Source of the DNA: a virus
DNA: 64,000 bases
Virus record (IMG/VR): IMGVR_UViG_3300019927_000044
Location: 3,331 to 67,330 of that record
Strand: one strand, 5' to 3'
Below the pieces are notes generated by a model, which saw only the letters and a program-made list of their open reading frames with translations, ran no database searches and was not told the DNA's origin. Position numbers and translations under genes: made by a program. This document shows positions 2,668-49,403 of the stretch, piece after piece. Position 1 is the stretch's first letter. Each line of letters starts with the position of its first letter.

Positions 2668-2704
2668 CTACATAAATTCACCGATTCCAGTCTGCTGCGA
2701 TATA
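2668..2704 (-). pseudogene. Displaced duplicate of the polB 3' end (ISQQTGIGEFM*)
   Basis: Aligns to the PolB C-terminus KQTDIEKFM*; lies immediately after the HNH stop codon. Confidence 0.65.
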
Positions 2705-3358
2705 TTAGTATTCTTTGTAGTCTTCATTTTCTACCGTTCTATGACAAGATTTACACAATGTTTTAAGATTTTCTTCAAAGTTGCCATTTTCTGGTTCATC
2801 GAAATTTCGTATAGGTATTATATGATGCACTGAAAGGTCTACATCATATTTCTCTAAATGCTCACTCCGAGTAATACCACACTTAACACATTCAAAATCA
2901 TCTCGTTCTATTTGTGCCTCTCTTACAAATTCCCAATTTTTACCATATTTTACATCTCCACCCTTCCATCTTGGGTGATTTTCACCAGACATTTTCTCAC
3001 TATGTATGGAATTAAAACATTTATCCGAACATACAACATCTCCACAAACTTGTGATGGCCATTTTTCAACATTTTTATCACAATTTTCACATTGGTATAC
3101 TTCTTTCCCCCCAGAATATGAAGGTGAATCCTCTCCAGAACCGTTTCTCATTTCGGCTAAGAATTTTTTATGACATTCAGAATTACAGAAATGATTTTCA
3201 TGCTCTGACGCTCTACTATGAATTTTGTCAAAATTATCGCCACAATATGTACATTGTACACTTACTCTACTATCATGTTCCAGACCTTCATGTGCCCCGC
3301 GTGCTTGTTTGGAACCGAATACGCTATCACAAAATCTACACTTTACATCATTTTCCAT
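2705..3358 (-). CDS. Zn-finger HNH endonuclease (homing-type)
   Basis: C2H2 and CxxC repeats; ERDDFECVKCG...VHHIIP...NLKTLCKSCH; AT-rich. Confidence 0.9.
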   Translation of the reverse strand: MENDVKCRFCDSVFGSKQARGAHEGLEHDSRVSVQCTYCGDNFDKIHSRASEHENHFCNSECHKKFLAEMRNGSGEDSPSYSGGKEVYQCENCDKNVEKWPSQVCGDVVCSDKCFNSIHSEKMSGENHPRWKGGDVKYGKNWEFVREAQIERDDFECVKCGITRSEHLEKYDVDLSVHHIIPIRNFDEPENGNFEENLKTLCKSCHRTVENEDYKEY

Positions 3359-3379
3359 AAATTACTATAATATCTCAAA

Positions 3380-6300
3380 CTACATAAATTTTTCTATATC
3401 TGTTTGTTTTGTATCTGAAATCATTGATTTATAACTCCAATTCATGGCCGACAGAATCGGCGTCAACGAACTGCCGATGGTCTTCTGCAACTGCGTGTCC
3501 ATGTCGATGACGAAGTTATCTGGTACCTTGTTTGGATTCTCGACCGACACTGCATCGACGTTCATTCCATCCTCTTTCGTTTTGGCAGTGTACGTACTGG
3601 GCCAGTCACCGCGGACACGTTCGATGTGTAGTAGTTGTGGCTTACTACCTTCACCCATGTGTTCCCAGTCGAAGTTCTTGTTCGCGTACTTTGCACCGCG
3701 ATACGTTGTCGATGGTAGCTCAGTGGGCGACCCGTACTCGTCTGGGTGCATGCTCATTCCCTTTGGACGGGCGATGTGGGCGTTTGAACACTCACCCCTT
3801 TGGGCTGTATCGTATGCAGTCTTGATGCGCTCACGGATGGCCTCACGCGCCTTAGAACGCTCGTCAATTCGAAGGATATGTTCGAGTACGTCACTGCATA
3901 CCTCGCGGGTAATCGTTGCTCTGTCAGACCGCACTACGTCGATACCAGTCACGTTAAACTCTGCTGGGTCGAACCATTCACCCTCTTCCCATGCGATAAT
4001 TTCTGCGTATCGTTTCTTCCCTTCTGCATTTTTCGTCGCTGGCTCTGGAACAAACAACCACGGCGCATACGACTCTATCTCTAATCTGCAATAATGCTCA
4101 CCATTCTTAATATTAAATGTATCTTCTGTCCACTCATTGTACCATTCGTTAACGCGGTCAGCAGCATCGTGCGCAATCTCTACAACCTCTTCCATATCAT
4201 CGCGGTCCTCGATATCGACATACGGAACAGCGCTCATGACACTATCCGTATCTCCCCCCACAAGTCGGGCGTTCCGCCCGTCGTAACCGCGTTCTTCTTT
4301 AATATCATTTAACGCACCAACGAACTTATCAGATGAGTCGATAATCATCTTCCTTCCACCAAGTGTAATCCCTTCTGCAATGCGCCAATCATACAGTCTG
4401 TAGCCCTTTCCGTAGGAATTACTGTCTCCGAACACTCCGTAGCAATTCGGTATATTGGTAAATTTTCCATTACGTCCAGCAACAAGCATATGATTATCTT
4501 CTACTTGGATGCAGTAGACGCCATTCTGTGCCCGCTCACGAGTCTCGTCACGATGACAGCGGAATGACATATTCGACCGCTCTGTACGCCAAAAGACACG
4601 CCACACCGAGTCACCATGTCTGGAACTATCATCTTCTGTATAAGTCACTGGGTGACCAGTTTCCCACACGAGGCGCATGAAATCGTCTCGAAGATTTGTC
4701 GAAACTGTTGTATATCTCTTTGGTGTATCAGCAGTATCACCATCACCTTTCATCATCGTATCACGTAGCAGCTTTTTCTGCTCCGTACTACATTTTTCAA
4801 ATACCCAAGATGGAATGGTCATATTGTAGCTCCCCTCACCACACCACTCAGTCAACATCTCGGCCCATACAGAACCGCTGTGGTTAATATCTGTATCTGT
4901 GACAGTGTACGATAGCTCCATTTCTTCAAATAGCTCAACTATTTCGCTGTGATGGTCTGGATGCACAGACTTATACTGAGAGATGGATATCCTATCACCA
5001 CGAGGTTCATCACCACTAAGATAAACTGAACCCTCAGTAATAAACCACCCAAGAAGCTTAATAACATTATCAGCATCATAATGTCTTGGGATGGCGTTGT
5101 GTCTTCCATTATCACTACAGCGGATAGATTCATCGGTGGTATCACCATCGTAATAATCCGCGAGGTCGATGGTATCTATACCACTACCATCAGTAGAAAT
5201 CCAATTGTTTGGAGTTTCGTATTGTGTCCACTTATTAAGGTTGCCAGCCTCGGTGTATTCGTATCCTCCACCATGTCGTGGTTTATTGGCGAGGAATCTA
5301 TGGTCTGGCGTTACTTTCAAGTCCATGGATTGGTTCTGTATGTGAACAATTTCACCATCATAGTTTGGCTTTTCTATTGTCTCTGTAACTGGTTTAACCT
5401 GCATTTCTTTTGTTTTTGGGTTGTACGAATACACATCATCACCAACCTCAATATCTGTAATGTTTCGGACCCCATCTGGTGTCAGTACTTCTGTATCGGG
5501 CGTGAAGCAACTATTCACAACCCTCTTAACGGCACTGTAGAGGTCTGTACCATCGTAATCGTTTTTCATTTCCATCAATTCATCTACAACACTATTCATA
5601 AACCCTTCTTTTATCGACGGTTTGCAGAAGTATAGCTTTTCATAATTGGGGCTATCCTCCTTTTTTATGTTCTTTGTACGCGTGTCAATGTATGTCCACC
5701 GACAGTCGTCTTTCGTATATTCAGACGCTTCTAAGTCCTCTTCTGTCCCAATAAGCGTTTCTGGGGACATATTACAGTTCCGAATCATGTTCGGATACAT
5801 CGACCATAGGTCTGGATATACAGCGTTCTTATGCCGCCCAAACTCTGGGGTGAAGTTGTGTGCCCCATAGTACCAATCCCGCTCTGGTTTCTCATTTGTT
5901 GGTAGTGCAATACCAGCATTATAGGCTTCACGAAGAATAAATGGGTCGAGGATATCAATGTTGTTATGGCAGTTATCGAACTGCACGCCTGTCAGCTTAC
6001 GAATGTTCTGGAATAGGTCGGTGACGCCCGCACTGTGGTCGATTCCTACAACGGCCTGCACGTCACGCATGTTGTATTTCAGGAACAGTTCAGGCTCGTC
6101 ACGCCACGCACTGTCGATATCTTCGATTTCTTCTTTCCCGAAGCCTAATTCCCGATTAGCGATGTTTTCGAGGCCGTACCCACCATTGGGCTTGCTGTAC
6201 TGGGTCTTCTTATAGGCCTTCATCATGTCGAAAAAGGTCAGACCTTTGCCAGACGGTCCCCAGCTACCGTCCCAGACCTGCTCCATTGGCGACCAACCCT

Positions 6301-7228
6301 TGAATGACATGATGTTACGTGCCTTACAGCGGTTAATGAGATAGGGGTAGTCGAAGGCCTTCCCATTGTCAGTAGTCGAGGAATTCCAGCCACCAAGCAT
6401 GTCGGGCTGTTTGTCAGCGACGTACTGATTGAAGTTATGAAGTAGCGCCGACTCTTCGTCAAACACACGTACGTCGCTGATATTGACTGGATGGCTGTGG
6501 TCGTCAGTTTCGATAGTGTCTGGCCGATTCTCGACGGCCATATTCTGTATTTCAGTATCGCTGTAGGCCCAGCCCTCATAGCGCAGTACCCAGACAGTGT
6601 ACTCGTCGGTATAGTTGTCGTGGGCAGTGATGGCCGTGACGGGCTGGTCAGCCTCGTCTGGGTCAGGAAACCCGTCTGGACTCTCAACCTCAATATCAAT
6701 CGTTATCTGACGAGGGTCAGCCTTCCAGTCAGCGTCGATGGCTTCAAAATCATCGACGTGAACGCGGTAGTCGCCATTAATGTACTGTGAGTCCCACGTT
6801 TCGTCCTTGTCGACTTCGATGTGGGTATAGATACCATTGTCAATGAGGAATCGCGTGGTGTAGAATACGTCAGCTTCCCACGTTGTATCAAAGTATTCTC
6901 GCAACCCCTCTTTGTCACGACCGCCATTGATATGCTCTGGCAGCTTCGTGTACACTCTCGCAAGGTCGTCGCCATGAATTGACTCGTAGCCACCTTCGGC
7001 GGTTTCGACCCACTGATGATTCTTGACGCGCTGGCTGTATGCATCTCGCTCGATATAGAACGATGGCAGATGCCCTTCAACTTCGACCCAGCGAGATTTT
7101 CCACTTCGTGTCCGACAGAACAGATAGACAACAGGTTCCTCGAACTGTTCGCGGTACTCGATATTCATTATATGCAACTGTTCTGTGTTACTGCCACCGT
7201 CGTCAATAAAGTCGTTCAATCCAGCCAT
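3380..7228 (-). CDS. polB: Family B DNA polymerase with intein
   Basis: ExoI IDIE, ExoII FDYPYL, ExoIII YNMRDV; polymerase motifs DLWSMYP, KRVVNS/CYG, GDTDS. Confidence 0.97.
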   Translation of the reverse strand: MAGLNDFIDDGGSNTEQLHIMNIEYREQFEEPVVYLFCRTRSGKSRWVEVEGHLPSFYIERDAYSQRVKNHQWVETAEGGYESIHGDDLARVYTKLPEHINGGRDKEGLREYFDTTWEADVFYTTRFLIDNGIYTHIEVDKDETWDSQYINGDYRVHVDDFEAIDADWKADPRQITIDIEVESPDGFPDPDEADQPVTAITAHDNYTDEYTVWVLRYEGWAYSDTEIQNMAVENRPDTIETDDHSHPVNISDVRVFDEESALLHNFNQYVADKQPDMLGGWNSSTTDNGKAFDYPYLINRCKARNIMSFKGWSPMEQVWDGSWGPSGKGLTFFDMMKAYKKTQYSKPNGGYGLENIANRELGFGKEEIEDIDSAWRDEPELFLKYNMRDVQAVVGIDHSAGVTDLFQNIRKLTGVQFDNCHNNIDILDPFILREAYNAGIALPTNEKPERDWYYGAHNFTPEFGRHKNAVYPDLWSMYPNMIRNCNMSPETLIGTEEDLEASEYTKDDCRWTYIDTRTKNIKKEDSPNYEKLYFCKPSIKEGFMNSVVDELMEMKNDYDGTDLYSAVKRVVNSCFTPDTEVLTPDGVRNITDIEVGDDVYSYNPKTKEMQVKPVTETIEKPNYDGEIVHIQNQSMDLKVTPDHRFLANKPRHGGGYEYTEAGNLNKWTQYETPNNWISTDGSGIDTIDLADYYDGDTTDESIRCSDNGRHNAIPRHYDADNVIKLLGWFITEGSVYLSGDEPRGDRISISQYKSVHPDHHSEIVELFEEMELSYTVTDTDINHSGSVWAEMLTEWCGEGSYNMTIPSWVFEKCSTEQKKLLRDTMMKGDGDTADTPKRYTTVSTNLRDDFMRLVWETGHPVTYTEDDSSRHGDSVWRVFWRTERSNMSFRCHRDETRERAQNGVYCIQVEDNHMLVAGRNGKFTNIPNCYGVFGDSNSYGKGYRLYDWRIAEGITLGGRKMIIDSSDKFVGALNDIKEERGYDGRNARLVGGDTDSVMSAVPYVDIEDRDDMEEVVEIAHDAADRVNEWYNEWTEDTFNIKNGEHYCRLEIESYAPWLFVPEPATKNAEGKKRYAEIIAWEEGEWFDPAEFNVTGIDVVRSDRATITREVCSDVLEHILRIDERSKAREAIRERIKTAYDTAQRGECSNAHIARPKGMSMHPDEYGSPTELPSTTYRGAKYANKNFDWEHMGEGSKPQLLHIERVRGDWPSTYTAKTKEDGMNVDAVSVENPNKVPDNFVIDMDTQLQKTIGSSLTPILSAMNWSYKSMISDTKQTDIEKFM
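4445..5509 (-). mobile_element. Intein (355 aa) with LAGLIDADG endonuclease in PolB motif B
   Basis: Begins CFTPDTEVLT, ends GRNGKFTNIPN before Cys+1; LLGWFITEGS and TMMKGDGD blocks. Confidence 0.92.
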
Positions 7229-7332
7229 TACTGTTGTATAATACGGCTACCTACATAAAGGTGTCGATGGCTTTTGCAGCAAACTCGTCACTGACCATAT
7301 CAACTACAACTACACAACAAAAACGTAAAAGA

Positions 7333-7955: not shown

Positions 7956-7996
7956 TACATACTACCATATGTGTACATCATATAAAAGTGTTTTTG

Positions 7997-8512: not shown

Positions 8513-8568
8513 ACACCACTATAGGTGTACTACGTATAAAAAGTCTTCGGTTACGGTTCAGTTACTGT

Positions 8569-14869: not shown

Positions 14870-14899
14870 TCAACAGAGGCTGAAGCCGCATCTCGCAAC
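14870..14899 (-). repeat. Synonymously diverged duplicate of the last 9 codons plus stop of the 14937-15035 gene
   Basis: GTTGCGAGATGCGGCTTCAGCCTCTGTTGA vs GTTGCGAGATGCGGCTTTAGCTTGTGCTAA; both encode VARCGFSLC*. Confidence 0.9.
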
Positions 14900-14936
14900 C
14901 TTTGAGAGTGTGTAACACTCTCATTCGGTAGCAGCT

Positions 14937-15035
14937 TTAGCACAAGCTAAAGCCGCATCTCGCAACGCACCGCTCACAGCCTTCGATGAACGCAATATCG
15001 CTACCACAGTCAGGGCATTTATCGAGGTGTCCCAT
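14937..15035 (-). CDS. 32-aa CPxCG zinc-ribbon microprotein
   Basis: MGHLDKCPDCGSDIAFIEGCERCVARCGFSLC; GTCAGTACG motif 11 nt upstream. Confidence 0.7.
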   Translation of the reverse strand: MGHLDKCPDCGSDIAFIEGCERCVARCGFSLC

Positions 15036-15093
15036 GTGTATTATTCCGTACTGACGCGTTTATTTTGATAAACGCTTCCGTGATTGAATGTTT

Positions 15094-19095: not shown

Positions 19096-19575
19096 TTACT
19101 CGTCTACTGTGTTCAGTTCAAGCGACTGGAAATAAAATCCGTTCTTGTTAGTCCCAGCATTCCATGAACTTTCATCAGTAATTACAGTAATTTCATCAGG
19201 GTCGAAATATAGCGTTTCAATATTATCGCTTGTACTTTCTTCATCAACAATTTCAAATTCTTCATCGAACGGTAGCACAATTTTATGACCTTCCATATCA
19301 ATGAATGAGACAATACGAGTAGCACCGTCTGGAACCAGCGCATCTTCGGCCAGTTGTTTAACCTTTGAAAGCGCCACTCGCAACGACTTGCATCCATTGT
19401 AGTGAATGCGAACATCACTATCATCATATCCATCACCAACGACAAACACATTACCAGAATGATGAACATAGCCAGCGGTGTTCTCTTCATCATCGAACTT
19501 CTTTGCTGCTTCAAGAGTGTCTTCGGCGGGCACTGTAAGGCTCCCAATTTCAACGTCGGTAGTATCGTTTGACAT
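19096..19575 (-). CDS. Hypothetical protein (159 aa)
   Basis: Start MSNDTT placed just downstream of the repeated promoter module. Confidence 0.65.
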   Translation of the reverse strand: MSNDTTDVEIGSLTVPAEDTLEAAKKFDDEENTAGYVHHSGNVFVVGDGYDDSDVRIHYNGCKSLRVALSKVKQLAEDALVPDGATRIVSFIDMEGHKIVLPFDEEFEIVDEESTSDNIETLYFDPDEITVITDESSWNAGTNKNGFYFQSLELNTVDE

Positions 19576-19661
19576 TGCGATTAGACAAAAGAGACTATTT
19601 GTATTAAACTTTTCTATATTATTCTCACGCATATTTACTGACGAAAAAAAAAACTACCTAC

Positions 19662-21005: not shown

Positions 21006-21128
21006 TGCATACTATTGTAGACGGTGGTTATACTTAAGTCTTCTGTTTTACGTCGTAAAGCGAAGAACTGCTAAGTCTTCTGTTTTGCACCGCAAAAAAA
21101 AAAGGATACCGATTGAATCTCTAATCGG

Positions 21129-21338: not shown

Positions 21339-21478
21339 GCGTACACCTCTTGATAGGCCGTGACAGTTGCGTAGGCCAGCCACGCAAGGCACATCGCAGT
21401 AAATACGACCCAGCCCCACATATTACATAGCCTCCCGAGTGGTCGGCACAGTAACGCTTGTTTCGATTGAAACAACCA

Positions 21479-21976
21479 TTACATAGCCTCCTGCATCTCG
21501 ACACCATCGTACAGTAGCTCACTGTCCAGCTTGACGACACACAGATACTCTGCGGCACTCTTTGGTATCCACAGTTCGCCGCTGTCAGCGCCGTCATACT
21601 CGTCATCTTCGTACATTTTTAGCATCGACTTGCGACCGTCACCGCTTTCAAGCCAGCCAGCCTGTACGATTTGCGTATTATTGAACAGCACTGCATCTTT
21701 TCCGAGTGAGGCCTGATGGTTCAGTTCACCAAACGCAATCTTGTTCAGCGAATTGTCACTGAAACCAAACTCGTTCTGGGCGTATTCAGACCACGTACCA
21801 CTAATTATCATACACTCAGTCGCGTCGTCGTCAAGTGCCGAGCCACGTGCATCAGCACGCTGCTGGGCGACTTTCAGCAGTCGCTCGAACTGTTCAGCAG
21901 GGATATCATGGCAATGTTCGTTGCTGTCCAGAATTTGCTGAAGATTGTCTTCGGTGAACGCTGTTGGGAGTTCCAT
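21479..21976 (-). CDS. Hypothetical protein (165 aa)
   Basis: Acidic ORF. Confidence 0.65.
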   Translation of the reverse strand: MELPTAFTEDNLQQILDSNEHCHDIPAEQFERLLKVAQQRADARGSALDDDATECMIISGTWSEYAQNEFGFSDNSLNKIAFGELNHQASLGKDAVLFNNTQIVQAGWLESGDGRKSMLKMYEDDEYDGADSGELWIPKSAAEYLCVVKLDSELLYDGVEMQEAM

Positions 21977-23569: not shown

Positions 23570-23622
23570 ACTATATACATAGTACCATACACGTTACATG
23601 TATATAAATCCAGCGAAGTAAG

Positions 23623-23904
23623 TTACGTATCTGCGAGAATCGTCACAAGTGGCTGTTCATACGTCCCATCACGGCCAGCAGCCCGCTCAATCTTGTCAGT
23701 CTCACCTTCAAATAGGTCACGTACGTCTTCATATCCGACTGAAACATCAGCATAACCGACCGATACAGACTCCAAGAAAATGCTGATACTTTCACACCCG
23801 TCTGGATGGCAGCGAATTTCTCCGTGGTGGACCAGTGACAGCGCCTCTGCGACAGTAATTTCAACCTCAAGTTCAAGGTTCTTCTGTTTGACAGTTGATT
23901 GCAT
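23623..23904 (-). CDS. Hypothetical protein (93 aa)
   Basis: Acidic ORF. Confidence 0.6.
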   Translation of the reverse strand: MQSTVKQKNLELEVEITVAEALSLVHHGEIRCHPDGCESISIFLESVSVGYADVSVGYEDVRDLFEGETDKIERAAGRDGTYEQPLVTILADT

Positions 23905-23937
23905 ACATACTACCGTACACGTTCCACGTATATAAAT

Positions 23938-24798: not shown

Positions 24799-24947
24799 TT
24801 TATGCTATAAGTATATAAATCCAGCGAAGTAGTAACAGCACAACAATACAACAGTAGTAACAGCACAGTCCAACTCCCGTAGTCACCGCCCCGCACAACC
24901 CTATTGTTGTATATGTACTACTATAGTAAAAGAGTGTCGGTCTGCCC

Positions 24948-34588: not shown

Positions 34589-34670
34589 GGTGGTTTTTTT
34601 TTGGTCGGTGGATATGCGTGACAGTAATATCGCTGGATTTATATACATGGCAGTGTATGAACTAAGTGTA

Positions 34671-34973
34671 ATGTCCGAACTTGATGTTGCTGTCGGCGCG
34701 GCAGTTGAATCGGCTCAAAAAGCATACGACAGCGGTGACAAAAACCCCTTCGACCACGGTTTTGCCCATCTTGAGGTAGATGGTCGCACAAGCCTCGCAA
34801 AGGCGCTACAAGAACACCCAGCGGTAAACGCGTCCGATTCATCATACGTTACTGTTGATGGACTCTCACGGTATCTCACGCCCCAGCAGGCGGGCTATAG
34901 AGCGTTCATCGAGACGTTAGAAGACTACGGCGTTGATGTGGGTCATGTTTCGCGGCATGGCCGTCTTGACTGA
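34671..34973 (+). CDS. Hypothetical protein (100 aa) ending RLD
   Basis: DHGFAHL...YRAFIETLEDYGV...RLD resembles a recurrent phage hypothetical family. Confidence 0.65.
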   Translation: MSELDVAVGAAVESAQKAYDSGDKNPFDHGFAHLEVDGRTSLAKALQEHPAVNASDSSYVTVDGLSRYLTPQQAGYRAFIETLEDYGVDVGHVSRHGRLD

Positions 34974-35058
34974 CAATTGAGGTTTTTTTTGGTCGGTGGA
35001 TATGCGTGATAGTAATATCGACAGACTTAATACATCTCATTCTAAAGTACTAATCGCA

Positions 35059-35232
35059 ATGTCCAATGCACGAAAAGCTCAGATATGGTACGATGTTAGA
35101 ACCGATGAAAGGGAACATACCGATATTGTTCAAGTGGATGATATAGAGAAAAGTGGTGATATTATAAAAATCTGGCTTGAAGGTAGTGAAGAGCCAGATT
35201 ACTATGTAAATGGTGTCCATTTCTTAGAGTAG
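35059..35232 (+). CDS. Small hypothetical protein (57 aa)
   Basis: Follows a promoter module. Confidence 0.6.
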   Translation: MSNARKAQIWYDVRTDEREHTDIVQVDDIEKSGDIIKIWLEGSEEPDYYVNGVHFLE

Positions 35233-35311
35233 GGCAGCTTTTTTTTAGTCGGTGGATATGAGTGACGGTAATATCGACAGACTTAATACACACCATTTCA
35301 TTTACTGATGT

Positions 35312-35512
35312 ATGCTCTTTGGCCGATGTCCGCGATGTGGTGATGTGGCGGAATTGTTCCACGCAAATGCTGTAAAGTGTCTGTGTAAGCATTGTATTCG
35401 TACGACTGAGAGAAATTCACGTTTACAAAATCATGGCCGTCCAGAGTTACCTCATGATAAGAATGATGTACAATTAGTGTATCAAGTAGATAGAGTATAC
35501 TCACAATTGTAG
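35312..35512 (+). CDS. Small Zn-finger protein (66 aa)
   Basis: CPRCG...CKHC after a promoter module. Confidence 0.6.
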   Translation: MLFGRCPRCGDVAELFHANAVKCLCKHCIRTTERNSRLQNHGRPELPHDKNDVQLVYQVDRVYSQL

Positions 35513-35519
35513 AGTGACA

Positions 35520-36330
35520 TTTTTTTTTGGTCGGTGGATATGCGTGACAGTAATATCTTTTCTAAGACGCTGTATGGCTTTCTCAGCAGTTTTTGACGTA
35601 TGAGGGTTCCAACTACGTGCCCCACAAACAAACCGCCCTAACACGTACTGACAGACTTCTAAGCTGGTTCTTACGGTGGTAATGAGAGAGAATAGGTAGG
35701 TTGTGGGTTCTGGCTGGGAGAGTGTTGTAAGGAATGCATGGGAGTTATTTCTGTATGTATGGGCGTATTTACTGGTAGATATGGGCATATTTAGTGATTG
35801 AATGGGTGTAATTGCGGGAAGATATGGGGGTGGGTACTTGTGCGGCGACGAAAATAACCTGTAGTTATACCCTAATAGCCCACAGACGGCCATGCCTTAC
35901 ACGCGTACGTAACGCAAAACGGCCAGAAATCAGATTAGCGGGTGTGTGCTGGCTTACACGGGCGTGAGAAGCGGATAACTGACGGTAATGAAAAGGTGGG
36001 GGACATATGCAGCTAAGAAATGATGAAATAGTACTTCACAAATATGCGATGAAATAGTACTTCACACCTTTACCTAATACATCCTAATATGACCTTGTAC
36101 ATTTCATGTCAGATATGTGGACTGGCAAGTATTGCCGCCAAACCACTCTCAATCAGGTAGCCGCAATCTATCAGTCAGACAGAATTAAGGACAGTCGACA
36201 GTGTATAAGGGTGTATAATGCATGTATAAGGTTTTACGCGTGTACAATCTACCTTTACAGCTATAGTAGTTTCACGTCTATAACAGTGAAACAAAGTCGA
36301 TAACTCAAAGACATATTTGCCAGTACAAGA
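35520..36330. other. ORF-poor region with iteron-like repeats (origin or genome-end candidate)
   Basis: G-rich + strand at 35670-35870; 19-bp repeat at 36022-40 and 36048-66; TGTATAA three times at 10-11 bp spacing, 36201-29. Confidence 0.45.
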
Positions 36331-40776: not shown

Positions 40777-42656
40777 TGTACGACGGTATGCCCGAGGAAC
40801 TTCGTGAACTACTCCCTCACGACATTCGTCTTTATATGCGAAATTTGTGGGTTCATCCCAACGACCCAACACGAAGTTACGATTTTTATGATGACGTTGG
40901 TCCAGCAGAAGATGAAGACGATGAAGAAGGGCAGTTTCTTCACTATCTTGCTGACGAAGATGGACCACTTGTTCCGAAAAATTGGGGCGATGTAGTTGTT
41001 CTTAATTTCGCTCGTGGGTGTCTAAAAACAACGACGGCGACTGCGGCTGCTGACTGGGGCGTGAGCCAGTTCCCCATGATTGAAGTTGACATTACTGCAC
41101 CGCGACAAGAGCAGTTCGGTGAAGTAATGGACAGATTTAAGGGGGCCGTCAAAAACAGCGGCATGGAAAAGCTACGGACGAAAGACAATATTAGTCACCA
41201 GAAGTTCGAGCGCGTACTTGAAGATGATAGCGGTGATACAATTAACGTCGAAGCTGACGTGAAGGCACGTTCTGCGTGGGGTAGCGGTGACGCACTTCGT
41301 GGACTGCACGGCCACTTCGGTATTATTGACGAGTTTCAGGACGTTGACGAATCGATGTTCTCAACGTTCCTTGAGGCAGTCGACCAGTCTGTTCCGCAAG
41401 TTCCGTATTTCCCGACGATTTTCATTATTGGAACGCCGAAGATGGCCAATTCGTTCTTCCATGACCTTTGGTCAATGTCGGACCAAAAGACGTGGAAACC
41501 GTACGAAGATAAAGATGGTGGCGAATGGGTCGAGCAAGACGAGCCAGACGAATTTATCCCACCCGAGCTTGCTGAACGGCGCGAGGAACTGCACGAAGAA
41601 GCAGATGAGTATATTGAATATTTGCATGGCGTTGCGAGAGAGGCTTACAATGAATGGCAGTCGCGTGATGATGCGCCACGAGATGTAGCTATTCCAGACG
41701 ACCTACAATCGATTGTTGCAGAAATCCAGAGCAAGCGTGAGGCTGCATCGTCTATTGAAGGTTATACTGTTACTGGCTGGCACATCGACCAGTATGCGTC
41801 CCCACTGCACGATGATGCAAAGATAGAATTTAAGCGCCAAAAATATACCGAAAAGAAGTTTAAAAACGAGGTGCTGGCAGAGTTTTACACGCCAGAAAAC
41901 GACCTGCTTGCCGACACGCACGTTAATGATGCATTTATTGACGACGCTGGCTTCACAAACAGACGGCAGTATGATGATAGCACTGTCGTGATGGGCGTTG
42001 ACTGGGGTGGTGGTAGTTCCGAAGATGCGTCAGATACTGTTATTGTCGTTGGTGAGCAAATCGGTGACGATGAGAGTGAGCGAATTGTAGTTCGGGATAT
42101 CGAATTCCTTGACCCAGACCTCAATAAGCAAGACGAATTGGACGAAGTTGAACAGCGCATACGTGACTATGAGGTTGACCGCATTGCGGTGGACGAGGGG
42201 TACGGCGCAAAGCAGCGTGAAGACCTGCAAGAAGGGAATAACATCTGGAACGATGATGGATGGGAGTCTGTATGTGGTATAATTTACGGCAACATCAAAG
42301 ATAAGGAAAAGCCGAAGTTTAGTGATTCAAGCTTTACTAACTCCGCATACTGTACTGTTGCCCGAACACACATGATTGAATCGATGGTCGACTACTTCAA
42401 AGATGGGCGGATTGAGATTCCCGCTGCGGATATGGATAACAACCGTGACGGGATGAAACAACAACTTATTGACCATTTGACTGCCCCGTACACTGATAGG
42501 ACAGAAACCAGTGGTGGGAAAAAGAAACTAAAAGTGATGGCTGACAGAAACGATGACGCGTTTCAGGCCTTCACGTATATGTACATCGCTGCTAAGAAAT
42601 TTGGCAGCACGAGAACGTTGACGAAAATTGGCAGCCATAATCGAACTGGATACTAA
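40776..42656 (+). CDS. terL: Terminase large subunit
   Basis: FARGCLKTT Walker A, GIIDEFQD Walker B, IGTPK, MGVDWG and NDDA nuclease motifs. Confidence 0.92.
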   Translation: MYDGMPEELRELLPHDIRLYMRNLWVHPNDPTRSYDFYDDVGPAEDEDDEEGQFLHYLADEDGPLVPKNWGDVVVLNFARGCLKTTTATAAADWGVSQFPMIEVDITAPRQEQFGEVMDRFKGAVKNSGMEKLRTKDNISHQKFERVLEDDSGDTINVEADVKARSAWGSGDALRGLHGHFGIIDEFQDVDESMFSTFLEAVDQSVPQVPYFPTIFIIGTPKMANSFFHDLWSMSDQKTWKPYEDKDGGEWVEQDEPDEFIPPELAERREELHEEADEYIEYLHGVAREAYNEWQSRDDAPRDVAIPDDLQSIVAEIQSKREAASSIEGYTVTGWHIDQYASPLHDDAKIEFKRQKYTEKKFKNEVLAEFYTPENDLLADTHVNDAFIDDAGFTNRRQYDDSTVVMGVDWGGGSSEDASDTVIVVGEQIGDDESERIVVRDIEFLDPDLNKQDELDEVEQRIRDYEVDRIAVDEGYGAKQREDLQEGNNIWNDDGWESVCGIIYGNIKDKEKPKFSDSSFTNSAYCTVARTHMIESMVDYFKDGRIEIPAADMDNNRDGMKQQLIDHLTAPYTDRTETSGGKKKLKVMADRNDDAFQAFTYMYIAAKKFGSTRTLTKIGSHNRTGY

Positions 42657-44332
42657 TGACAGAAGAATTTGATATTGGTGTCAGTGCAGAAACTGACGCT
42701 ACGACATCGTTTGAACTTGGACGTGTAGCAACACATCAGTATTCCGAACGCACTGCGGAGCGGACTGCTGGTGTTGGAACCGAAGAGGGTGACAGTGCCG
42801 ATGAAATTGACCCACGTCGGCTGATGGGCGACCCGACTGTTAATAAAATACGTTGGCTATATCGCACATCGCTGGCACAGACACTTGTCAATAAACCAGT
42901 CGATGATGCATTTAAAAATGGCTACGAAATAGAACACGACGGTAATCGTGACATTCAGTCGCTACTTGATGGTCTTGACTGGGAACAGCACTACAAAGAC
43001 GTGAAGAAAAAGGCACGTCGTGATGGATTTGCACTATCGTTCTTTGTTCTTGAGGATAATAGCGATGGTGTGTGGGAGGACCCAATGAAAGACGACGTGA
43101 CTGTTAGTTCTGTCAAAAAGCTTGAAATAGAGACACTTGACAGTCTTGCAACGTTTAAGGCCAGTCACGACGCTATTCCTGCGGGTGCTGATGCTGACCC
43201 ACTTGAAGGTCTTCCACACGACGACTATGAGATTCGTCCAACTGGTATTGTGATGGACACTGACCCCACATCTGAAACATACAAAGAACCACTTGGTTAT
43301 CTCATTGGTCCGAAAGACTGGATTGAGGAGCATGACCCGTCTGGTGTGAAATTCTATCATCGCAATCGCTTTATCCACCACGTTGAGAACCGTACCGTGG
43401 ATGGCGATATTAGCGATGATAGTCTGGGTCGCTGGGAAGGTGACAGCGTACTTGTCTCTTCGTATCATCTTCTTGACGGTATGAAGAAAGGTAACTGGGC
43501 GACAATGCAGACAGTATTCCGTTATGCTGCAAAGCTATACCACGTTGCCTTACCCGAAGACGCTGACGAAGACGACTGGGAGCAGGCCAATGAGAACATG
43601 CAGAATCTCAATGCCAAGTCAGAGCTTGTTACGCCAGCTGGCTACGAAATTGATGATTTCCAGACTGATGGTCAACTGGACCCAGAGCCGTACTTTGACG
43701 TGCTATTCGAGCAAGTCTGTGCGTCTAATGAGATGACCAAATCTGTTTTGTTTGGCACACAAAGCGGTACTGTCAGTGGGTCTGAAACTGATATCAAAAA
43801 TTACTTTAACAAAGTCGAGCGGATGCGTCATGGGTCTATTGACAGAGACATGCATAAATTTGTTAACAAGTCGATACAACTTGTTGACAATCGTGCAAGT
43901 AGCGATTACGACCTTGATTTTACAATTGAGTGGGGACCACTATTTCAGCTATCGCAGCTTGATAGGGCAGAGCAGCTATCCCGAACGATGGGGACGCTGG
44001 CCTCGGCTATCAATAACTTCATCCTGACGCCAGAAGAAGCCCGTGAGATTCTGAAAGAGGAGTGGGCTGACGTTGACATTGACTGGTCTGATAGTTTCAG
44101 TGAAGAAGAAACTGACTTCCTCAAAACGCTGAACATTGCCCAGCTTGGTACTGAGGCTGCATTACCAGACGGTGAGGGTGGCAGCGACGGAAATCCCGCT
44201 GTCGGGCAGAATGGTGGGGGCAACCCTCGCGGAAATACTATATCATCCGAACAACCAACGACTGATAACTTAAGCGATGAAGACAAAAGTGATATAGCAC
44301 GGAGAGTTGTGGAGATGATAGAAAATGAGTGA
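42656..44332 (+). CDS. Portal protein (DUF1073-like)
   Basis: Follows TerL; LVNKPVDDAFKNG, LFGTQSG...SETDIKNYF motifs. Confidence 0.88.
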   Translation: MTEEFDIGVSAETDATTSFELGRVATHQYSERTAERTAGVGTEEGDSADEIDPRRLMGDPTVNKIRWLYRTSLAQTLVNKPVDDAFKNGYEIEHDGNRDIQSLLDGLDWEQHYKDVKKKARRDGFALSFFVLEDNSDGVWEDPMKDDVTVSSVKKLEIETLDSLATFKASHDAIPAGADADPLEGLPHDDYEIRPTGIVMDTDPTSETYKEPLGYLIGPKDWIEEHDPSGVKFYHRNRFIHHVENRTVDGDISDDSLGRWEGDSVLVSSYHLLDGMKKGNWATMQTVFRYAAKLYHVALPEDADEDDWEQANENMQNLNAKSELVTPAGYEIDDFQTDGQLDPEPYFDVLFEQVCASNEMTKSVLFGTQSGTVSGSETDIKNYFNKVERMRHGSIDRDMHKFVNKSIQLVDNRASSDYDLDFTIEWGPLFQLSQLDRAEQLSRTMGTLASAINNFILTPEEAREILKEEWADVDIDWSDSFSEEETDFLKTLNIAQLGTEAALPDGEGGSDGNPAVGQNGGGNPRGNTISSEQPTTDNLSDEDKSDIARRVVEMIENE

Positions 44333-45092
44333 ATGTCCAAGTTGTGACAAAACTTTTCAAACTGATTCAGGAATGAAATCACACCACACGCAAGTACATA
44401 ATGAAAGTTTATGTATGATAGAAGTGGGCTGTGCAAATTGTAATGAACTATTTTCTGCCCACGAATATAAGATAGAACGTTCAGATAATTTGTTTTGTTC
44501 TCAAGAATGTCAGTCAGAATATAAAAAAGACAATGAATATTTACACCCTCCCACATATGAGGGTAAAGAACATCCACAATTTGATTCTACTAAAATAAAT
44601 TGTTGTTGATGTGATAAAATATATTTACAACATGATTATAAAATAGAACAAAATGAAAACAATTTTTGTTCTGTCGGTTGTCGTGCAGAATGGCAATCTG
44701 AAAACGTTGTAGGAGAATCACACCACCAATGGAGTGGTGGTAAAAATAAATATAACAAAGGTTGGGAAAGAAAAAGAATTAATGCAATAGTCCACTCTGA
44801 TGGAAGATGTAAATCGTGTGGAATATCAGAAAAAGAACATATTAATAAAAATGGTTTTGGTCTTCATGTTCATCATATAATACCATTAAAAGAGTTTGAT
44901 GACCAAAACAGAGCACATCAGTTAGATAATCTTATGCCCTTATGTATTAATTGCCATATGAGAGTAGAAAATTCTGGCGGGATGGAGCAAGGTCAGCAAA
45001 CGGCAAGTGAGCAGCCAGAAAATGACGGACTTTCGCGCCGAGACATTGACAGAATTGCAGAACGAACGGCAGAAATAATTCAAAACGAATGA
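44325..45092 (+). pseudogene. Zn-finger HNH endonuclease interrupted by an in-frame TGA (44607-09), fused to a duplicate portal C-terminus
   Basis: Frame continues after TGA to GRCKSCG...HVHHIIP...NLMPLCINCH, then SEQPENDGLS...EIIQNE*. Confidence 0.85.
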
Positions 45093-45148
45093 CACAGAAT
45101 GTTACATTAATATTAAAATGATAACAATTATTTGTCATTACGGTATAT

Positions 45149-45472
45149 ATGAGGAGTAACACAATGGGAGAATCATTCACAGTTTCGGAAGGCGACGTTC
45201 CTGATGGTGACGACTTTGTTGCGACAAAAGAAGGGCAGAATACAGAGTTTGTCGCAAAGTCTTTTGTACTTGGTGGAGAATTTGAAATTTATTGGGAACG
45301 TGATACGGATGGTGATGGAAACTATGAAGTGTCGGTGCTGCTTGATACGTTAGGGCAGGGCATTTCAACTGGTAATGATATCCCAGTTGATGAGTTTTTC
45401 CGCTCACGACTTCGATGTAAAAATGTTAGTGGCGATACCGCAGATATTAGTGTTATGGGGGAACGTTTATGA
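45149..45472 (+). CDS. Hypothetical virion-region protein
   Basis: Acidic beta-rich ORF between portal and protease. Confidence 0.65.
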   Translation: MRSNTMGESFTVSEGDVPDGDDFVATKEGQNTEFVAKSFVLGGEFEIYWERDTDGDGNYEVSVLLDTLGQGISTGNDIPVDEFFRSRLRCKNVSGDTADISVMGERL

Positions 45473-46002
45473 GTGGGCTTAATCCAACTGGTCTGGGTAA
45501 TACTGAAAACTTTTCTAACGTAAAAGCTGAATCGGTTAATGCAGAGCAATCATCTCTTAAAAACGTATCATCTGAAATAATTTCAAAAAATTTAAAAACT
45601 GATATTGATGTTAATGAATATGAATTTATTTCTATTTTAATCAAAAATCTTTATTCTGGTAATAATGAAAATATTATATTTCGTATAAATAATAATACAA
45701 ATAAAATATATAATAATATTTTTGAATACGGTTCATCAGTTAAAAATTATTGGGTTGTGGCTTCAAACACGTCTTCTGAAAATCGTTATTCTGGAAAAAT
45801 AGATATATTTTCAGGAGATAATATTAATGGCAATTCTCCTATAACAATTTCTAATCATGGAAATTTAAAAAAAGTTAATAACACTAAAATAAAAAATGGA
45901 CACACAACAAATAATGTTAGTATGAATTCCATTCAAATCAATACAACTGGTACAGAAAACTTATCATCAACAAAATTTGTTGTCATAGGTTATAAATATT
46001 AA
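45469..46002 (+). CDS. Very AT-rich, Asn/Ile/Lys-rich fibre-like protein
   Basis: NFSNVKAESVN resembles NFGNVTADSVN in the 61018 fibre. Confidence 0.65.
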   Translation: MSGLNPTGLGNTENFSNVKAESVNAEQSSLKNVSSEIISKNLKTDIDVNEYEFISILIKNLYSGNNENIIFRINNNTNKIYNNIFEYGSSVKNYWVVASNTSSENRYSGKIDIFSGDNINGNSPITISNHGNLKKVNNTKIKNGHTTNNVSMNSIQINTTGTENLSSTKFVVIGYKY

Positions 46003-46064
46003 AAAAAAATATTTGACAGAATATATTACCTGTCAGTACGATATAAACGAGACAGGTTGCTTCT

Positions 46065-47588
46065 ATGACTGACATTGTACGAAGTCACGACACTGGAATT
46101 AACGCGCTTGCAGACGCGGGTGGTGTCGTAGAGAGCGCGGATGGTGAAAGTGTCTCATTTGACTGGGACGAGCAACACGTCGTTACTGTTGATGCGCCAG
46201 CCGACCTGAAAGGTGCATTTGATACCGACAAGTTCTACAAAATTACCGATGCCGTTGTTGCGAGGCCGATTAAACAGCGGTATATTAAAGATGGCGAACT
46301 TGTCACAATGGTCAAAGCGGCTGACGAGCTTCGAAAAGCTGCATGGTCGTTTGACAATTCACCATACACCATCGGCCATCCTAACACTGGGATGGTCAAG
46401 GATGTGAACGACATCCACGGGTTCTGGCGCAACGTTCAGTACGACACTGACGATGCAGAAATGGTTGCGAATCTTTATATTCCAGTCACAGACGACGAGG
46501 CTGTTGACTATATTGAAGAAAATAAAGACGTATCGGTTGGATTTTACAACCGAGAGGCCGCTATTGACAGTTACGATGGCGACCTTGGGCCTCTTGTCGA
46601 AGATACCAGCGATGTAGATGGCGTTCAGACAGATATTCTTGGCAATCATATCGCTGGTGTTGAGCGCGGACGATGCAGTGGTGAAGATGGATGCGGACTT
46701 GATGACGCCTCTCATGGTGTCATCAAACAGACTGATTCTATGACAGACGAGTATTCTATCGTTGGTGATAGTTCTGTCGACTTTACGACAGACTATACTG
46801 ACGACGAGGGCCAGTATTTTGCAGTTGCGCCCGACGAGAATCCAGACGACGAACCAAAATTCCCTGTCAATAGTTGTTCTGATGTGGAAGACGCATGGCA
46901 CTTTGCTATTCGAGAGCGAGGTGACATTGACATTTCATTTGGAACGCTAAAAGAGCGCATTCAGTCGAGAGCGAGCAATCTTGACTGTGATGTACCATCC
47001 GAAGACGAATCGGATGATGGGGAAACTGACAATTCTTGTGGTTGCGGTACGACACAAACAATGGACGAAGACTTTAAGCTTCCACAAGCCAGTATCGACG
47101 CGCTGGCTGAGGAGAACGATAAGGTTGCACAGCTAATTGAAGAACGAGACGAATATGAGTCTGCGCTTGACGAGCGGCGTGAGCGTATTGACGACGCGTT
47201 CGATTCTGCCGAAAACTTTGACATCGACCTTGACGAAGATGAGTGTCGGTGCGATGGTGTTAAGCAGATTGTTGAAGACCTTGACGAGCAGATTGACGAG
47301 GTTGAAGACCTTCGAGACGAACTTTCCGAATATCGGGAAGACGAAATCGAAGAGAAGCTTGACGAACTTGAAGACTTTGGTGCTGACCGTGAAGAGATGA
47401 AGGAAATGGCCGACGAGGCCGAAAACCCTATTTCGGAACTGGACAGCGAGCTTGAGCGGTGGGAGACTATCGCTGAAAACGTTGACGACAGCACCGTGAA
47501 GAATACTGAGTCTGGTACCGAGTCTACACCAGACACGACAGTTGAATCCAGTGGCACGCGAAGTTACGGTCGCGGTCACGGGGCATAA
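46065..47588 (+). CDS. Prohead protease (DUF2213-like) fused to an acidic coiled-coil scaffold
   Basis: PYTIGHP...VSVGF...GNHIAGVERGRCS; coiled-coil C-terminus. Confidence 0.85.
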   Translation: MTDIVRSHDTGINALADAGGVVESADGESVSFDWDEQHVVTVDAPADLKGAFDTDKFYKITDAVVARPIKQRYIKDGELVTMVKAADELRKAAWSFDNSPYTIGHPNTGMVKDVNDIHGFWRNVQYDTDDAEMVANLYIPVTDDEAVDYIEENKDVSVGFYNREAAIDSYDGDLGPLVEDTSDVDGVQTDILGNHIAGVERGRCSGEDGCGLDDASHGVIKQTDSMTDEYSIVGDSSVDFTTDYTDDEGQYFAVAPDENPDDEPKFPVNSCSDVEDAWHFAIRERGDIDISFGTLKERIQSRASNLDCDVPSEDESDDGETDNSCGCGTTQTMDEDFKLPQASIDALAEENDKVAQLIEERDEYESALDERRERIDDAFDSAENFDIDLDEDECRCDGVKQIVEDLDEQIDEVEDLRDELSEYREDEIEEKLDELEDFGADREEMKEMADEAENPISELDSELERWETIAENVDDSTVKNTESGTESTPDTTVESSGTRSYGRGHGA

Positions 47589-47637
47589 TCTGTCAGTACG
47601 ATTAATACAGACGGAGACATAACGGAGATACTATATT

Positions 47638-48204
47638 ATGGCAGTTGAACGCTACGTTGAACAGGCTGACCGTTCCCCGCTATCGGGTATTGTTGACGAA
47701 GACATTTACGCTGGTGAACTGACCAGCGATGGTGGCAGTGGTGTCACCGCCTTCGTTTACGCCGATGCGAATGAAACGCTTGGCCTTGCACGATATGATG
47801 GACAGGCATTTGCACGAGAACACGAGGATGAAGTTCGGGAAGACAAGTACGTCGCTGGTGATGCCCAGCGTGAGCGTGCCCAGTACCACCCGAACGAATC
47901 TGACGCCCGTGTGAACGTTCGCACGGCGGAAGATAATGGCGTCGACCCCGCACCGTCGATTGGACATCGGGATGTTGTCGGTGTCATTGACGCGGCTGGT
48001 GGGACTGCTGACTCTGCGGCTGAGTTTAGCGGGCGCATTGTTCAGGAGGGTTACACTGACGATGCGGCAACGACGTACGACCGAGATACTGGCAACTTTA
48101 AGGCTATTGGCTATGCCTACCGTCCTGCACAGCAGGCGGGCAACAGCGTGACTGAGTTTGACCGACCAACTCGTGTCGTGCTTTTCGGAGAAATTAAGGA
48201 GTAA
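47638..48204 (+). CDS. Capsid decoration/cement protein (probable)
   Basis: Position between scaffold and MCP. Confidence 0.6.
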   Translation: MAVERYVEQADRSPLSGIVDEDIYAGELTSDGGSGVTAFVYADANETLGLARYDGQAFAREHEDEVREDKYVAGDAQRERAQYHPNESDARVNVRTAEDNGVDPAPSIGHRDVVGVIDAAGGTADSAAEFSGRIVQEGYTDDAATTYDRDTGNFKAIGYAYRPAQQAGNSVTEFDRPTRVVLFGEIKE

Positions 48205-48211
48205 TTAACTA

Positions 48212-49324
48212 ATGGCAACGACTTCTTTCCATACTGAAGAAGATTTCACTGAACAGGTTAGTCCCGACGAAGACCTCATGCTTGAGCGTGAGGGTCGTGA
48301 CCGTCGTGGTGTCCGTCGAGAGATGGCCCCACTGAATGTCATGGAGCGTGGGACGCGAAAGATTGAGGAAGGCGATGGGACGTATGTGCAGCACGATTCG
48401 TCCATGCCGACTGGTACCACTGGCGTTGGCGAGGTTCTTGGCAACGTCGACATCGTTCGGTACCTCGGTGACGAAGTGCTGATTCCGCGTATGACGCACT
48501 CCATGGCGCTTGACGCCGAAGACCTTGACCTTGGCAATGCCAATGAAAAGGTCCAGCGAGCGCAGGATACCGTCATGGAGATGTTCGACATTCAGGCGGA
48601 CCTACAGTTCCTCAAAGGCATTACCGATGAGGAAGGTAACGAGGTTCAGCCCGATATCTTCTCGTGGCTTGATAACAACATCCCGAGCGGAAATGTTATC
48701 GACGCGACGAACTACACGTCGGACTATTCGCTGTCGAACGGACAGCCGTCGAACATTATCCAGCGTGTTGCCTACCAGAACACGCAGGGTATCTATGCCG
48801 ACGACGCATGGGACATGGCGCTGTGGAAGCATCCTGTAGAGGCACTGTGGAACACGATTGACGACAACAGCGGCTTCGCGCTTCAGAGTCAGTGGGTTGA
48901 CATGGGCGCTGACGCGGCTGGTGTCGGTAACTCTGTCGTTGGCGATACGGTCAAGATTCCGAATCAGGTTGGTCTTCGCACCGCGCCCGACCAGCCCGAT
49001 AGTCTTCAGTTCGACATCGACTTCCCGACTCGTCAGAACTCCTCGTACGACTCGCCCATTGGTGACATCGAAGGGTTCACGGATGACGACGACGTGATGT
49101 ACCTCATCCCCGACCACGGTGGGGACTTCTTCTCGATGTACGAGCATCCCGAACCCACGCTTATTCAGGAGCCTGTCCGCAAGAACGGCGGGCGTCTTGA
49201 GTACGAGTACTACTGGCGTGCTGGTCAGGCATTCGGCTTCGGTTCCCACAAGACCGACGACGGTGCTGGTGGCGATGTTGCGTACGATGCCATCAAGATT
49301 GAGAACGTCTCTGCGCTATTCTAA
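48212..49324 (+). CDS. Major capsid protein (HK97 fold)
   Basis: 370 aa; position; AQDTVMEMFDIQADLQFLKG backbone-helix pattern. Confidence 0.85.
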   Translation: MATTSFHTEEDFTEQVSPDEDLMLEREGRDRRGVRREMAPLNVMERGTRKIEEGDGTYVQHDSSMPTGTTGVGEVLGNVDIVRYLGDEVLIPRMTHSMALDAEDLDLGNANEKVQRAQDTVMEMFDIQADLQFLKGITDEEGNEVQPDIFSWLDNNIPSGNVIDATNYTSDYSLSNGQPSNIIQRVAYQNTQGIYADDAWDMALWKHPVEALWNTIDDNSGFALQSQWVDMGADAAGVGNSVVGDTVKIPNQVGLRTAPDQPDSLQFDIDFPTRQNSSYDSPIGDIEGFTDDDDVMYLIPDHGGDFFSMYEHPEPTLIQEPVRKNGGRLEYEYYWRAGQAFGFGSHKTDDGAGGDVAYDAIKIENVSALF

Positions 49325-49403
49325 CATGACGGTGGGAACTGATAGCGCAGATGCAGAGCGGACTCATGCTACGCAGAGTCCGAAAGTCTCTGCGCTATTC
49401 TAA
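49307..49403 (+). repeat. 18-bp direct repeat of the MCP 3' end around a 61-nt spacer containing its 10-nt complement
   Basis: GTCTCTGCGCTATTCTAA at 49307-24 and 49386-403; ATAGCGCAGA at 49342-51; GGACTC/GAGTCC hairpin. Confidence 0.92.

Follow-up and report, generated by a model that had tools for sequence, protein, structure and literature searches.

Duplicated gene ends in a haloarchaeal myovirus genome: homing-endonuclease cassettes and short hairpin-bearing inserts as probable sources

The DNA analyzed here (the window) is a 64-kb stretch, positions 3,331 to 67,330, of the 67,387-bp IMG/VR virus record IMGVR_UViG_3300019927_000044. It covers most of the ~67-kb genome of a haloarchaeal myovirus from a salt lake, the nearest isolate of which is HATV-2 (Haloarcula tailed virus 2). 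The initial annotation had claimed that in four genes, encoding a family B DNA polymerase (polB), the portal protein, the putative major capsid protein (MCP) and a CPxCG zinc-ribbon protein, the terminal codons occur a second time downstream; based on repeats and alignments all four duplications were found to be real and non-random. Rather probably, these second copies have two sources, homing-endonuclease cassettes and short gene-end hairpin inserts. The four genes, with sizes in amino acids (aa), are:

42656..44332, plus strand: portal protein gene, 558 aa (Pfam Phage_portal_3, E 5e-26)
3380..7228, minus strand: family B DNA polymerase gene (polB), 1282 aa (Pfam DNA_pol_B, DNA_pol_B_exo1 and Intein/Hint; about 120 homologues listed)
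48212..49324, plus strand: putative MCP gene, 370 aa (synteny with HATV-2; ESM Atlas look-alikes)
14937..15035, minus strand: CPxCG zinc-ribbon gene, 32 aa (homologues in 8 of the 8 relatives examined, L027-L029 and L066-L070)

The structural genes lie in the order portal, prohead protease, 188-aa gene, putative capsid gene, head completion, sheath and tube, as they do in HATV-2, to which the portal protein is 43.5% and the capsid candidate 42% identical. The 370-aa product was assigned as the putative MCP from this synteny (portal-protease-188-aa gene) and from ESM Atlas look-alikes among capsid families; it had no family match in Pfam or PHROGs, no relatives were found in prokaryote genomes, and an AlphaFold model built from 12 sequences was unusable (pLDDT 30). 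No match resulted from a PHROGs search with six proteins of the window or from a megablast of the structural region against phage records. Pfam searches of the window identified polB with an intein, the portal gene, two HNH genes, a GIY-YIG gene and a third HNH gene with three homing-endonuclease-associated repeats, giving a genome total of four endonuclease genes and one intein.

At the portal gene the last 36 aa are 47% identical (18/38; E 3e-10) to a 38-codon copy which lies beyond an HNH gene. The features of this site are:

44219..44332, plus strand: foreign 3' end of the portal gene, a replacement of 36 codons that follows ..QNGGG (the alignment with c12, the empty allele, is collinear up to 44217)
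44325..44975, plus strand: HNH endonuclease gene (Pfam HNH, E 1.1e-8; not in c12)
44976..45092, plus strand: residual native portal end, 38 codons and stop (36 of 38 aa identical to the portal C-terminus of c12; 90.5% nucleotide identity over 126 nucleotides (nt))

The comparison allele for both portal and MCP genes was contig IMGVR_UViG_3300019924_000012 (L002+L006; c12 in this text), which is collinear with positions 41203-52400 of the window at 93-96% nt identity apart from three window-only blocks: 44218-44974 (757 nt, replacement end and HNH gene), 45101-46013, and 79 nt after the capsid gene. The c12 portal gene runs from ..QNGGG directly into MEQGQQTASEQP..IIQNE and its stop, followed by the promoter-like motif of the protease gene. 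The window portal gene diverges from c12 from 44218 and its frame stays open to 44332. The content of G and C (GC) is 0.43 in the replacement end, 0.32 in the HNH gene and 0.50 in the residual end. The start of the HNH gene overlaps the new portal stop, and the gene lacks its own last codons and stop, continuing in frame into the residual portal end; this truncation and fusion at the junction fits a non-homologous right-hand join. The two junctions have just GGnGG microhomology in common. The family assignment of the HNH gene starting at 44325 was upheld by Pfam; the gene is not intact, since an in-frame TGA at 44607-44609 interrupts it and it reads into the residual copy, the stop of which had to be corrected to 45090-45092. 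Judged by this in-frame stop, the portal HNH gene appears to have decayed after insertion.

Directly after the native portal stop lies the second of the window-only blocks (45101-46013), 913 nt with a GC of 0.30, flanked by an imperfect 8-10-nt direct repeat (GACA..GAAT). It holds two open reading frames (ORFs):

45149-45472: ORF without family match, 107 aa
45469-46002: ORF without family match, 177 aa, GC about 0.23

The active end of polB reads ..KQTDIEKFM, and a second end, ..SQQTGIGEFM, occurs 712 nt downstream beyond another HNH gene, with its stop at 2668; the two have 11 nt in common, including the stop. The features of this site are:

3380..3440, minus strand: putative replacement (foreign) polB 3' end, about 16-20 codons, ..KSMISDTKQTDIEKFM and stop (low GC; divergence from the family consensus and from the homologue L043)
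2705..3358, minus strand: free-standing HNH endonuclease gene, 217 aa (Pfam HNH, E 4.8e-8)
2668..2700, minus strand: putative residual native polB end, 10 codons and stop (SQQTGIGEFM), out of frame with the HNH gene

The GC is 0.48 in the polB gene body, 0.23 in its last ~60 nt, through which the frame remains intact, 0.34 in the HNH gene, 0.46 in the residual end and 0.46-0.47 in the residual end together with the DNA downstream. The nearest HNH-free polB is that of L043 (80% identity over the last 333 aa), which has another downstream gene and the C-terminus ..NWSYDEIVADSQQSGLGEWT, including SQQSGLGEWT; about 45 further homologues end in ..D[ST]xQxxxxxFM. The residual SQQTGIGEFM matches the pattern of the homologues and resembles L043, and the active end departs from both directly after NWSY. 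It is therefore well supported, not proven, that the residual copy is the native end and the active end foreign. Six native codons are absent between the replacement point and the residual copy, of which only 10 codons are left, so that part of the native sequence would have been lost at the junction. The arrangement of polB, HNH gene and residual end recurs with 97% protein identity in two contigs from other metagenome samples, which excludes an assembly artefact; one of these is the c12 sample, so the polB cassette, unlike the portal one, is shared.

The 217-aa HNH protein is composed of a C2H2 finger, Cys-rich modules and an HNH domain at the C-terminus. It is 43% identical to the portal HNH protein over 102 aa (the catalytic half), with the same finger modules, and by this resemblance the two genes are paralogues. 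No HNH relatives were found in IMG/VR, and the HNH protein search returned solely a near-identical copy and one 39% match. The polB intein occupies residues about 574-917, with weak Pfam matches to Intein_splicing and Hint; many polB homologues are without an intein and have about 915-960 aa, compared to 1282 aa here.

These results agree with the initial annotation in that the polB and portal copies flank an AT-rich HNH gene (GC 0.32-0.34) and are diverged at the protein level. Its proposal that the gene receives a replacement C-terminus was likewise supported in the endonuclease cases, since the portal end of c12 equals the residual copy and the active ends have GC values of 0.23 and 0.43 as opposed to 0.46-0.50 in the residual ends.

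A third cassette was identified in relative G002 (L027), in which the CPxCG gene ends in ..CVAGCGFSLCG, followed by an AT-rich 239-aa ORF and, directly after the stop of that ORF, by a second end, CSAGCGFSLC and stop. The 239-aa ORF was assigned by reading to the LAGLIDADG family from its LLMGDG motif. The two CPxCG ends have seven nt differences, six of them silent; a single ..CGFSLC end was found in five other relatives and a more divergent ..CGWSACG in two. The presence of a LAGLIDADG gene between two CPxCG ends indicates that endonucleases do land at the end of this gene in viruses of this group.

The mechanism which we propose for the cassettes is as follows. A free-standing HNH gene would move together with the 3' end of the gene ahead of it in the donor. 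The enzyme would cut an endonuclease-free allele near its 3' end, and repair would copy the donor from the upstream homology through the end of the donor gene and on through the endonuclease gene; on the far side the break would be closed without homology. In this way the host gene would gain a foreign but working C-terminus, the recognition site would be split and the native end left stranded downstream; the portal HNH gene would have decayed later. Among the sequences compared, the alignment with c12 shows this arrangement at the portal gene, polB is consistent with it, and the CPxCG gene of L027 is an example in which the enzyme is of the LAGLIDADG family.

The layout is known from fungal mitochondria, where the mORFs of Allomyces macrogynus (atp6) and Glomus sp. 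(atp6, atp9, cox2 and nad3) consist of an endonuclease ORF in the 3' part of a gene, with a foreign C-terminus in phase with the gene, a native one downstream which is closer to relatives, and an ORF sometimes in phase with the remnant (PMC3630166). The virus cassettes agree with these in four features: an endonuclease ORF at the 3' end of a gene, an in-phase foreign end, a retained native end, and the occurrence in several genes per genome. They differ in that the fungal enzymes belong to the LAGLIDADG or GIY-YIG families and those of the virus are HNH enzymes with zinc-finger modules (LAGLIDADG in L027), in that the fungal host is an organelle and the host here an archaeal tailed virus, and in that the biochemical demonstration of mobility concerns the Allomyces mORF. 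Short endonuclease-free versions with hairpins and ORFs of the type found in this genome are not described for fungal mORFs. The virus cassettes are thus the known fungal-mitochondrial layout in a new setting, an archaeal virus.

Free-standing homing endonucleases of T-even phages (Seg, Mob) carry out intronless homing. Endonuclease genes at the boundaries of genetic exchange were described in ICP1 phages (PMC10448857). Common to these enzymes and the virus HNH genes are the location next to essential conserved genes, the co-transfer of flanking DNA, the patchy presence in relatives and the repeated zinc-finger modules. The T-even and ICP1 genes lie between genes or split genes into working halves, and no description of a duplicated, replaced gene end was found for them; nor was a report of such a layout found in the literature on phages or archaeal viruses.

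The remaining duplications are associated with short inserts. The gene whose end is duplicated is here called gene A and the following one gene B; the relay ORF is a short reading frame which extends from the stop of gene A to the stop of copy 2. The inserts of the window are:

49307..49403, plus strand: MCP short insert (copy 1 49307-49324; 61-nt spacer 49325-49385; copy 2 49386-49403)
49326-49403, plus strand: MCP relay ORF, 25 codons, ending on the copy 2 stop, with GGAG and the ATG of the next gene directly after
14870..14966, minus strand: CPxCG short insert (copy 1 14937-14966; 37-nt spacer 14900-14936 with two hairpins; copy 2 14870-14899)
21423..21491, minus strand: short insert at the end of the 165-aa gene 21479-21976 (copy 1 21479-21491; 43-nt spacer; copy 2 21423-21435)
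15041..15093, minus strand: weak candidate at the end of a 656-aa gene (15-nt copies with 4 mismatches, 8-bp hairpin, ATGA relay ORF)

The last 18 nt of the putative MCP gene are repeated exactly after 61 nt. The c12 allele, which encodes an identical MCP protein, is without the insert (a 79-nt indel), and no raised divergence from c12 was observed beside this clean indel. The MCP 3' ends were read at 31 loci, namely the window and 30 relatives. An insert follows the MCP stop in seven (window, L012, L016, L017, L030, L035 and L031); that of L031 is hairpin-like sequence without a duplication, and the last five MCP codons are duplicated in five distinct lineages. On the MCP tree at least 4-5 gains or losses of the insert are needed, and in three cases two capsid genes are nearly identical, yet only one has the insert. 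At the 30 other loci no endonuclease was found at the MCP end.

The MCP spacers open with an inverted copy of the last codons of their own lineage, followed by a second hairpin and then copy 2. Hairpin 1 is 12-15 bp long and carries the stop codon in its loop; its arms covary, two positions showing three types of pair among five to seven sequences. Compared to shuffled sequences, the five MCP inserts gave folding z scores of -1.3 to -3.4 (window -2.8), and the empty allele gave 0. In 5 of the 5 insert lineages there is a relay ORF of 19-25 codons, in frame with copy 2 and ending on its stop, the ATG of which lies from 1 nt before the end of the MCP stop to 2 nt after it. A run of T6-7 follows copy 2 after about 16 nt in L012 and 12 nt in L035. 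In two comparisons, L035 with L036 and L030 with L031, the capsid genes are nearly identical but the gene behind them has diverged strongly over its first ~25-75 nt, which marks the junction of the two genes as a recombination hot spot independent of the inserts.

The 30-nt copies of the CPxCG insert match at 25 of 30 positions; the five differences, which include TAA to TGA, are all silent (P about 3e-4 under random substitution), and copy 1 has the AT-richer codons. The insert folds with a z of -4.4. In L066 the same gene has an insert of which the spacer is also 37 nt (z -6.1). Neither insert has a relay ORF, and in these cases gene B does not begin at the stop but about 60 nt further on, after a TATA-like tract. 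In a search for an empty CPxCG allele, no relative of the 656-aa gene above 68% identity was found.

A scan for recurring gene ends, as the initial annotation had suggested, revealed extra cases at the 165-aa gene, at the 656-aa gene (weak) and in relatives. The 165-aa gene, for the product of which no relatives were found in IMG/VR, has a 13-nt repeat and a relay ORF of 18 codons starting in a TAATG overlap. At the 656-aa gene copy 2 coincides with a GTCAGTACG promoter-like motif and may be a chance match. A gene of relative G001 (L047/L048) has an exact repeat, a relay ORF with an ATGA overlap and a fold z of -3.1; in one of two alternative folds its spacer begins with the gene end in inverted form. 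The inserts of the window other than that of the MCP gene gave z values of -1.8 to -4.4. The second hairpin of the G001 insert recurs with 22 of 23 nt after the stop of another gene (3735-3757 and 21034-21056), where a T-rich tract follows, and is thus a shared gene-end hairpin.

In six related genomes a scan of terminal peptides gave 68 raw matches, of which nearly all came from one 123-nt tandem array and a few from spurious ORFs, against 5 matches in reversed or complemented controls; a 15-nt scan gave 23 matches against 7. In view of these control matches only the strong cases are to be trusted, and the weak ones may be due to chance. The array, of at least eight units, is located at about 19,100-20,100 of G004 (L057/L058), and also at the end of G005.

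Across the inserts, the relay ORFs start -4 to +2 nt from the stop of gene A and are in frame with copy 2 in the five MCP lineages, at the 165-aa gene and in G001, although the inserts vary in length (56-79 nt). In the CPxCG insert, as in those of the MCP gene and in one of the G001 folds, an inverted copy of the gene end comes first in the spacer, so that a strong hairpin contains the stop codon or lies next to it. In four lineages the two copies differ silently only, including TCT/AGC serine switches (P 2e-4 to 3e-3).

Several explanations of the short inserts were rejected. Had the junction between genes A and B been duplicated in tandem, the spacer should derive from the 5' part of gene B; local alignment against shuffled sequences did not support this (p 0.02-0.74, with p > 0.1 in 7 of 9 cases). 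A transposon, a miniature inverted-repeat transposable element or another repeat family does not fit, the spacers being unique among the sequences compared save for the one 23-nt G001 hairpin, and the duplications measuring 13, 18, 18, 22 and 30 nt. By reading, no T-run as in a bacterial-type intrinsic terminator follows the hairpins in the MCP, CPxCG and 165-aa inserts of the window. Readthrough of the MCP stop codon was dismissed, since none of the added lengths (79, 62, 65, 61 and 65 nt) is a multiple of three. AT-rich endonuclease debris was discarded as well: the spacers have a GC of 0.46-0.56, a native composition, versus 0.32-0.34 for the endonuclease genes, and no recognisable endonuclease remnant.

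That the duplications are chance matches or assembly artefacts is hardly credible. The 11-nt match at polB is by itself just moderately unlikely, and the weak 656-aa case is comparable to control matches, but an exact 18-nt repeat within 80 nt and 25 matches in 30 are far beyond chance, the polB layout occurs in independent contigs from other samples and MCP inserts of the same design in five other contigs, and the repeats are shorter than a sequencing read. Three readings of the short inserts carry more weight, and the likelihoods which we give them overlap. They may be selected regulatory modules, a reading we hold only tentatively, in which a hairpin at the stop codon defines the 3' end of the gene A messenger RNA (mRNA) or shields it, pairing of the inverted copy with one repeat or the other forms a two-state switch that responds to ribosomes completing gene A, and the relay ORF meters the translation of gene B. 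This would account for structure stronger than in shuffled sequences (z -1.3 to -6.1), for the compensatory pairs of MCP hairpin 1, for the retention of inserts in five MCP lineages and in two of the CPxCG gene, whose spacers are both 37 nt long, for the relay frame preserved across differing lengths, and for the second hairpin of G001 being a copy of one which elsewhere stands ahead of a T-rich tract. Near-identical viruses live without the insert, however, the window MCP and CPxCG hairpins are not followed by a T-run, a repeat with an inverted copy has the two-state property automatically, and the covariation rests on five to seven sequences. Somewhat doubtful is the proposal of neutral template-switching footprints at quasi-palindromes of gene ends, tolerated only if genes A and B stay expressed. 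Double template switching produces the order copy, inverted copy, copy seen in the MCP inserts, L066 and G001, the repeats are exact in the window MCP insert and in G001, and creation and maintenance of hairpins by this process are documented (PMC8794818); the silent-only divergence with its TCT/AGC switches, the spacer motifs which distant lineages have in common and the second hairpins unrelated to the gene end are at odds with it.

It is rather unlikely that, as the initial annotation had proposed, the short inserts are HNH-type cassettes after loss of the endonuclease, or cut-resistant alleles in which the insert splits the recognition site. L027 has a complete LAGLIDADG cassette at the very gene end, that of CPxCG, where the window and L066 have short inserts, silent-only differences are expected if copy 1 came from another allele, the codons of CPxCG copy 1 are AT-richer than those of copy 2, the distribution of the inserts is patchy, and the genome carries four endonuclease genes and an intein. 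Opposed to this are the spacer composition given above, the 0 of 30 other MCP loci with an endonuclease, the identical copies of the window MCP insert with flanks that have no co-conversion tract versus c12, and spacers that contain conserved hairpins and relay ORFs, not gene debris. A link of the short inserts to endonuclease cutting is possible, unproven.

As a working view, the short inserts (53-79 nt) are taken to be products of recombination or template switching, spread and lost by recombination and kept if the end of gene A and the ribosome supply of gene B are preserved. Such an insert would consist of the terminal codons, a hairpin-bearing spacer and the terminal codons again, the duplication leaving gene A its end; where the next gene begins right at the stop, the relay ORF would deliver ribosomes from the gene A stop to gene B. 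Survival constraints on both genes would explain the duplication as well as the relay ORF. The stop-codon hairpin probably also alters the stability of the mRNA end or translational coupling.

Several observations weigh against this explanation or against the cassette model. Template switching without selection can yield compensatory changes in the arms (PMC8794818). The presence or absence of the insert among near-identical viruses fits loss by recombination between direct repeats as well as gain, and between L035 and L036 the MCP insert lies in a larger exchanged junction segment reaching into the next gene. Copies which differ silently only call for two alleles, as in one-sided repair triggered by an endonuclease, or for selection on a translated copy 2; a simple local duplication does not explain them. 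Concerning the cassettes, the portal HNH gene is a pseudogene. The empty alleles predicted by the initial annotation were found in relatives for portal (c12), but no HNH-free polB allele closer than the 80% aa identity of L043 was found, so that the polarity at polB is judged from composition and consensus.

Hairpins at gene ends and leaky terminators are known from phage capsid genes, as is termination-reinitiation coupling via ATGA or TAATG overlaps. The inserts resemble these in the stem-loop at the stop of a highly expressed structural gene and in a short ORF from that stop to just before the next start; they differ in the missing T-run after the window hairpins, in the duplicated codons and in a relay ORF which ends in the last residues of gene A. 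Template switching creates an inverted copy of adjacent sequence in one step, with stem arms that co-change (PMC8794818). The hairpins of that study are ribosomal RNA and genomic ones; inserts that repeat a gene end directly are outside its subject, and silent-only divergence of copies is not explained by it. A further proposal, which we regard as improbable, is that the inserts form an undescribed class of tiny gene-end cassettes of archaeal viruses, built from terminal codons, their inverted copy, a hairpin and the terminal codons once more, and mobile between alleles by recombination (possibly with endonucleases acting in trans). They would be RNA switches that respond to ribosomes, the relay ORF controlling the output of the gene after the capsid gene. 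In this proposal the relay peptide, which in some lineages retains the last five residues of the capsid protein through silent-only changes, could in addition be a functional mimic of the C-terminus.

The cassettes would extend the fungal type of invasion, an endonuclease with a spare gene end, to archaeal viruses, in two essential genes of one genome (polymerase and portal) and in the zinc-ribbon gene of a relative. They yield chimeric protein ends and stray gene fragments which annotation pipelines miscall, they mark recombination boundaries, and they predict endonuclease target sites, expected at the start of the residual copy. With the short inserts, the tolerance of compact viral genomes to insertions at tightly coupled junctions can be studied in a small, testable system, and a regulatory device at the end of the capsid gene may come to light.

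Further repeats were observed in the window. On the minus strand at 22733-24831 the GIY-YIG gene (23938-24798), the HNH gene with three HNH_repeat modules (22733-23569) and a 93-aa gene lie in a row, each preceded by the same TATA-containing promoter-like segment. The 21 nt at 24811-24831 recur exactly at 23600-23620 and in part near 23930; this looks like a head-end counterpart of the gene-end duplications. Between the small genes at 34590-35560 four copies of a ~40-nt intergenic element were identified, each with a T-run and then GGTCGGTGGATATGCGTGACAGTAATATC. One copy runs on into a GCTGGATTTATATAC promoter-like motif, and the element is probably a terminator-plus-promoter unit.

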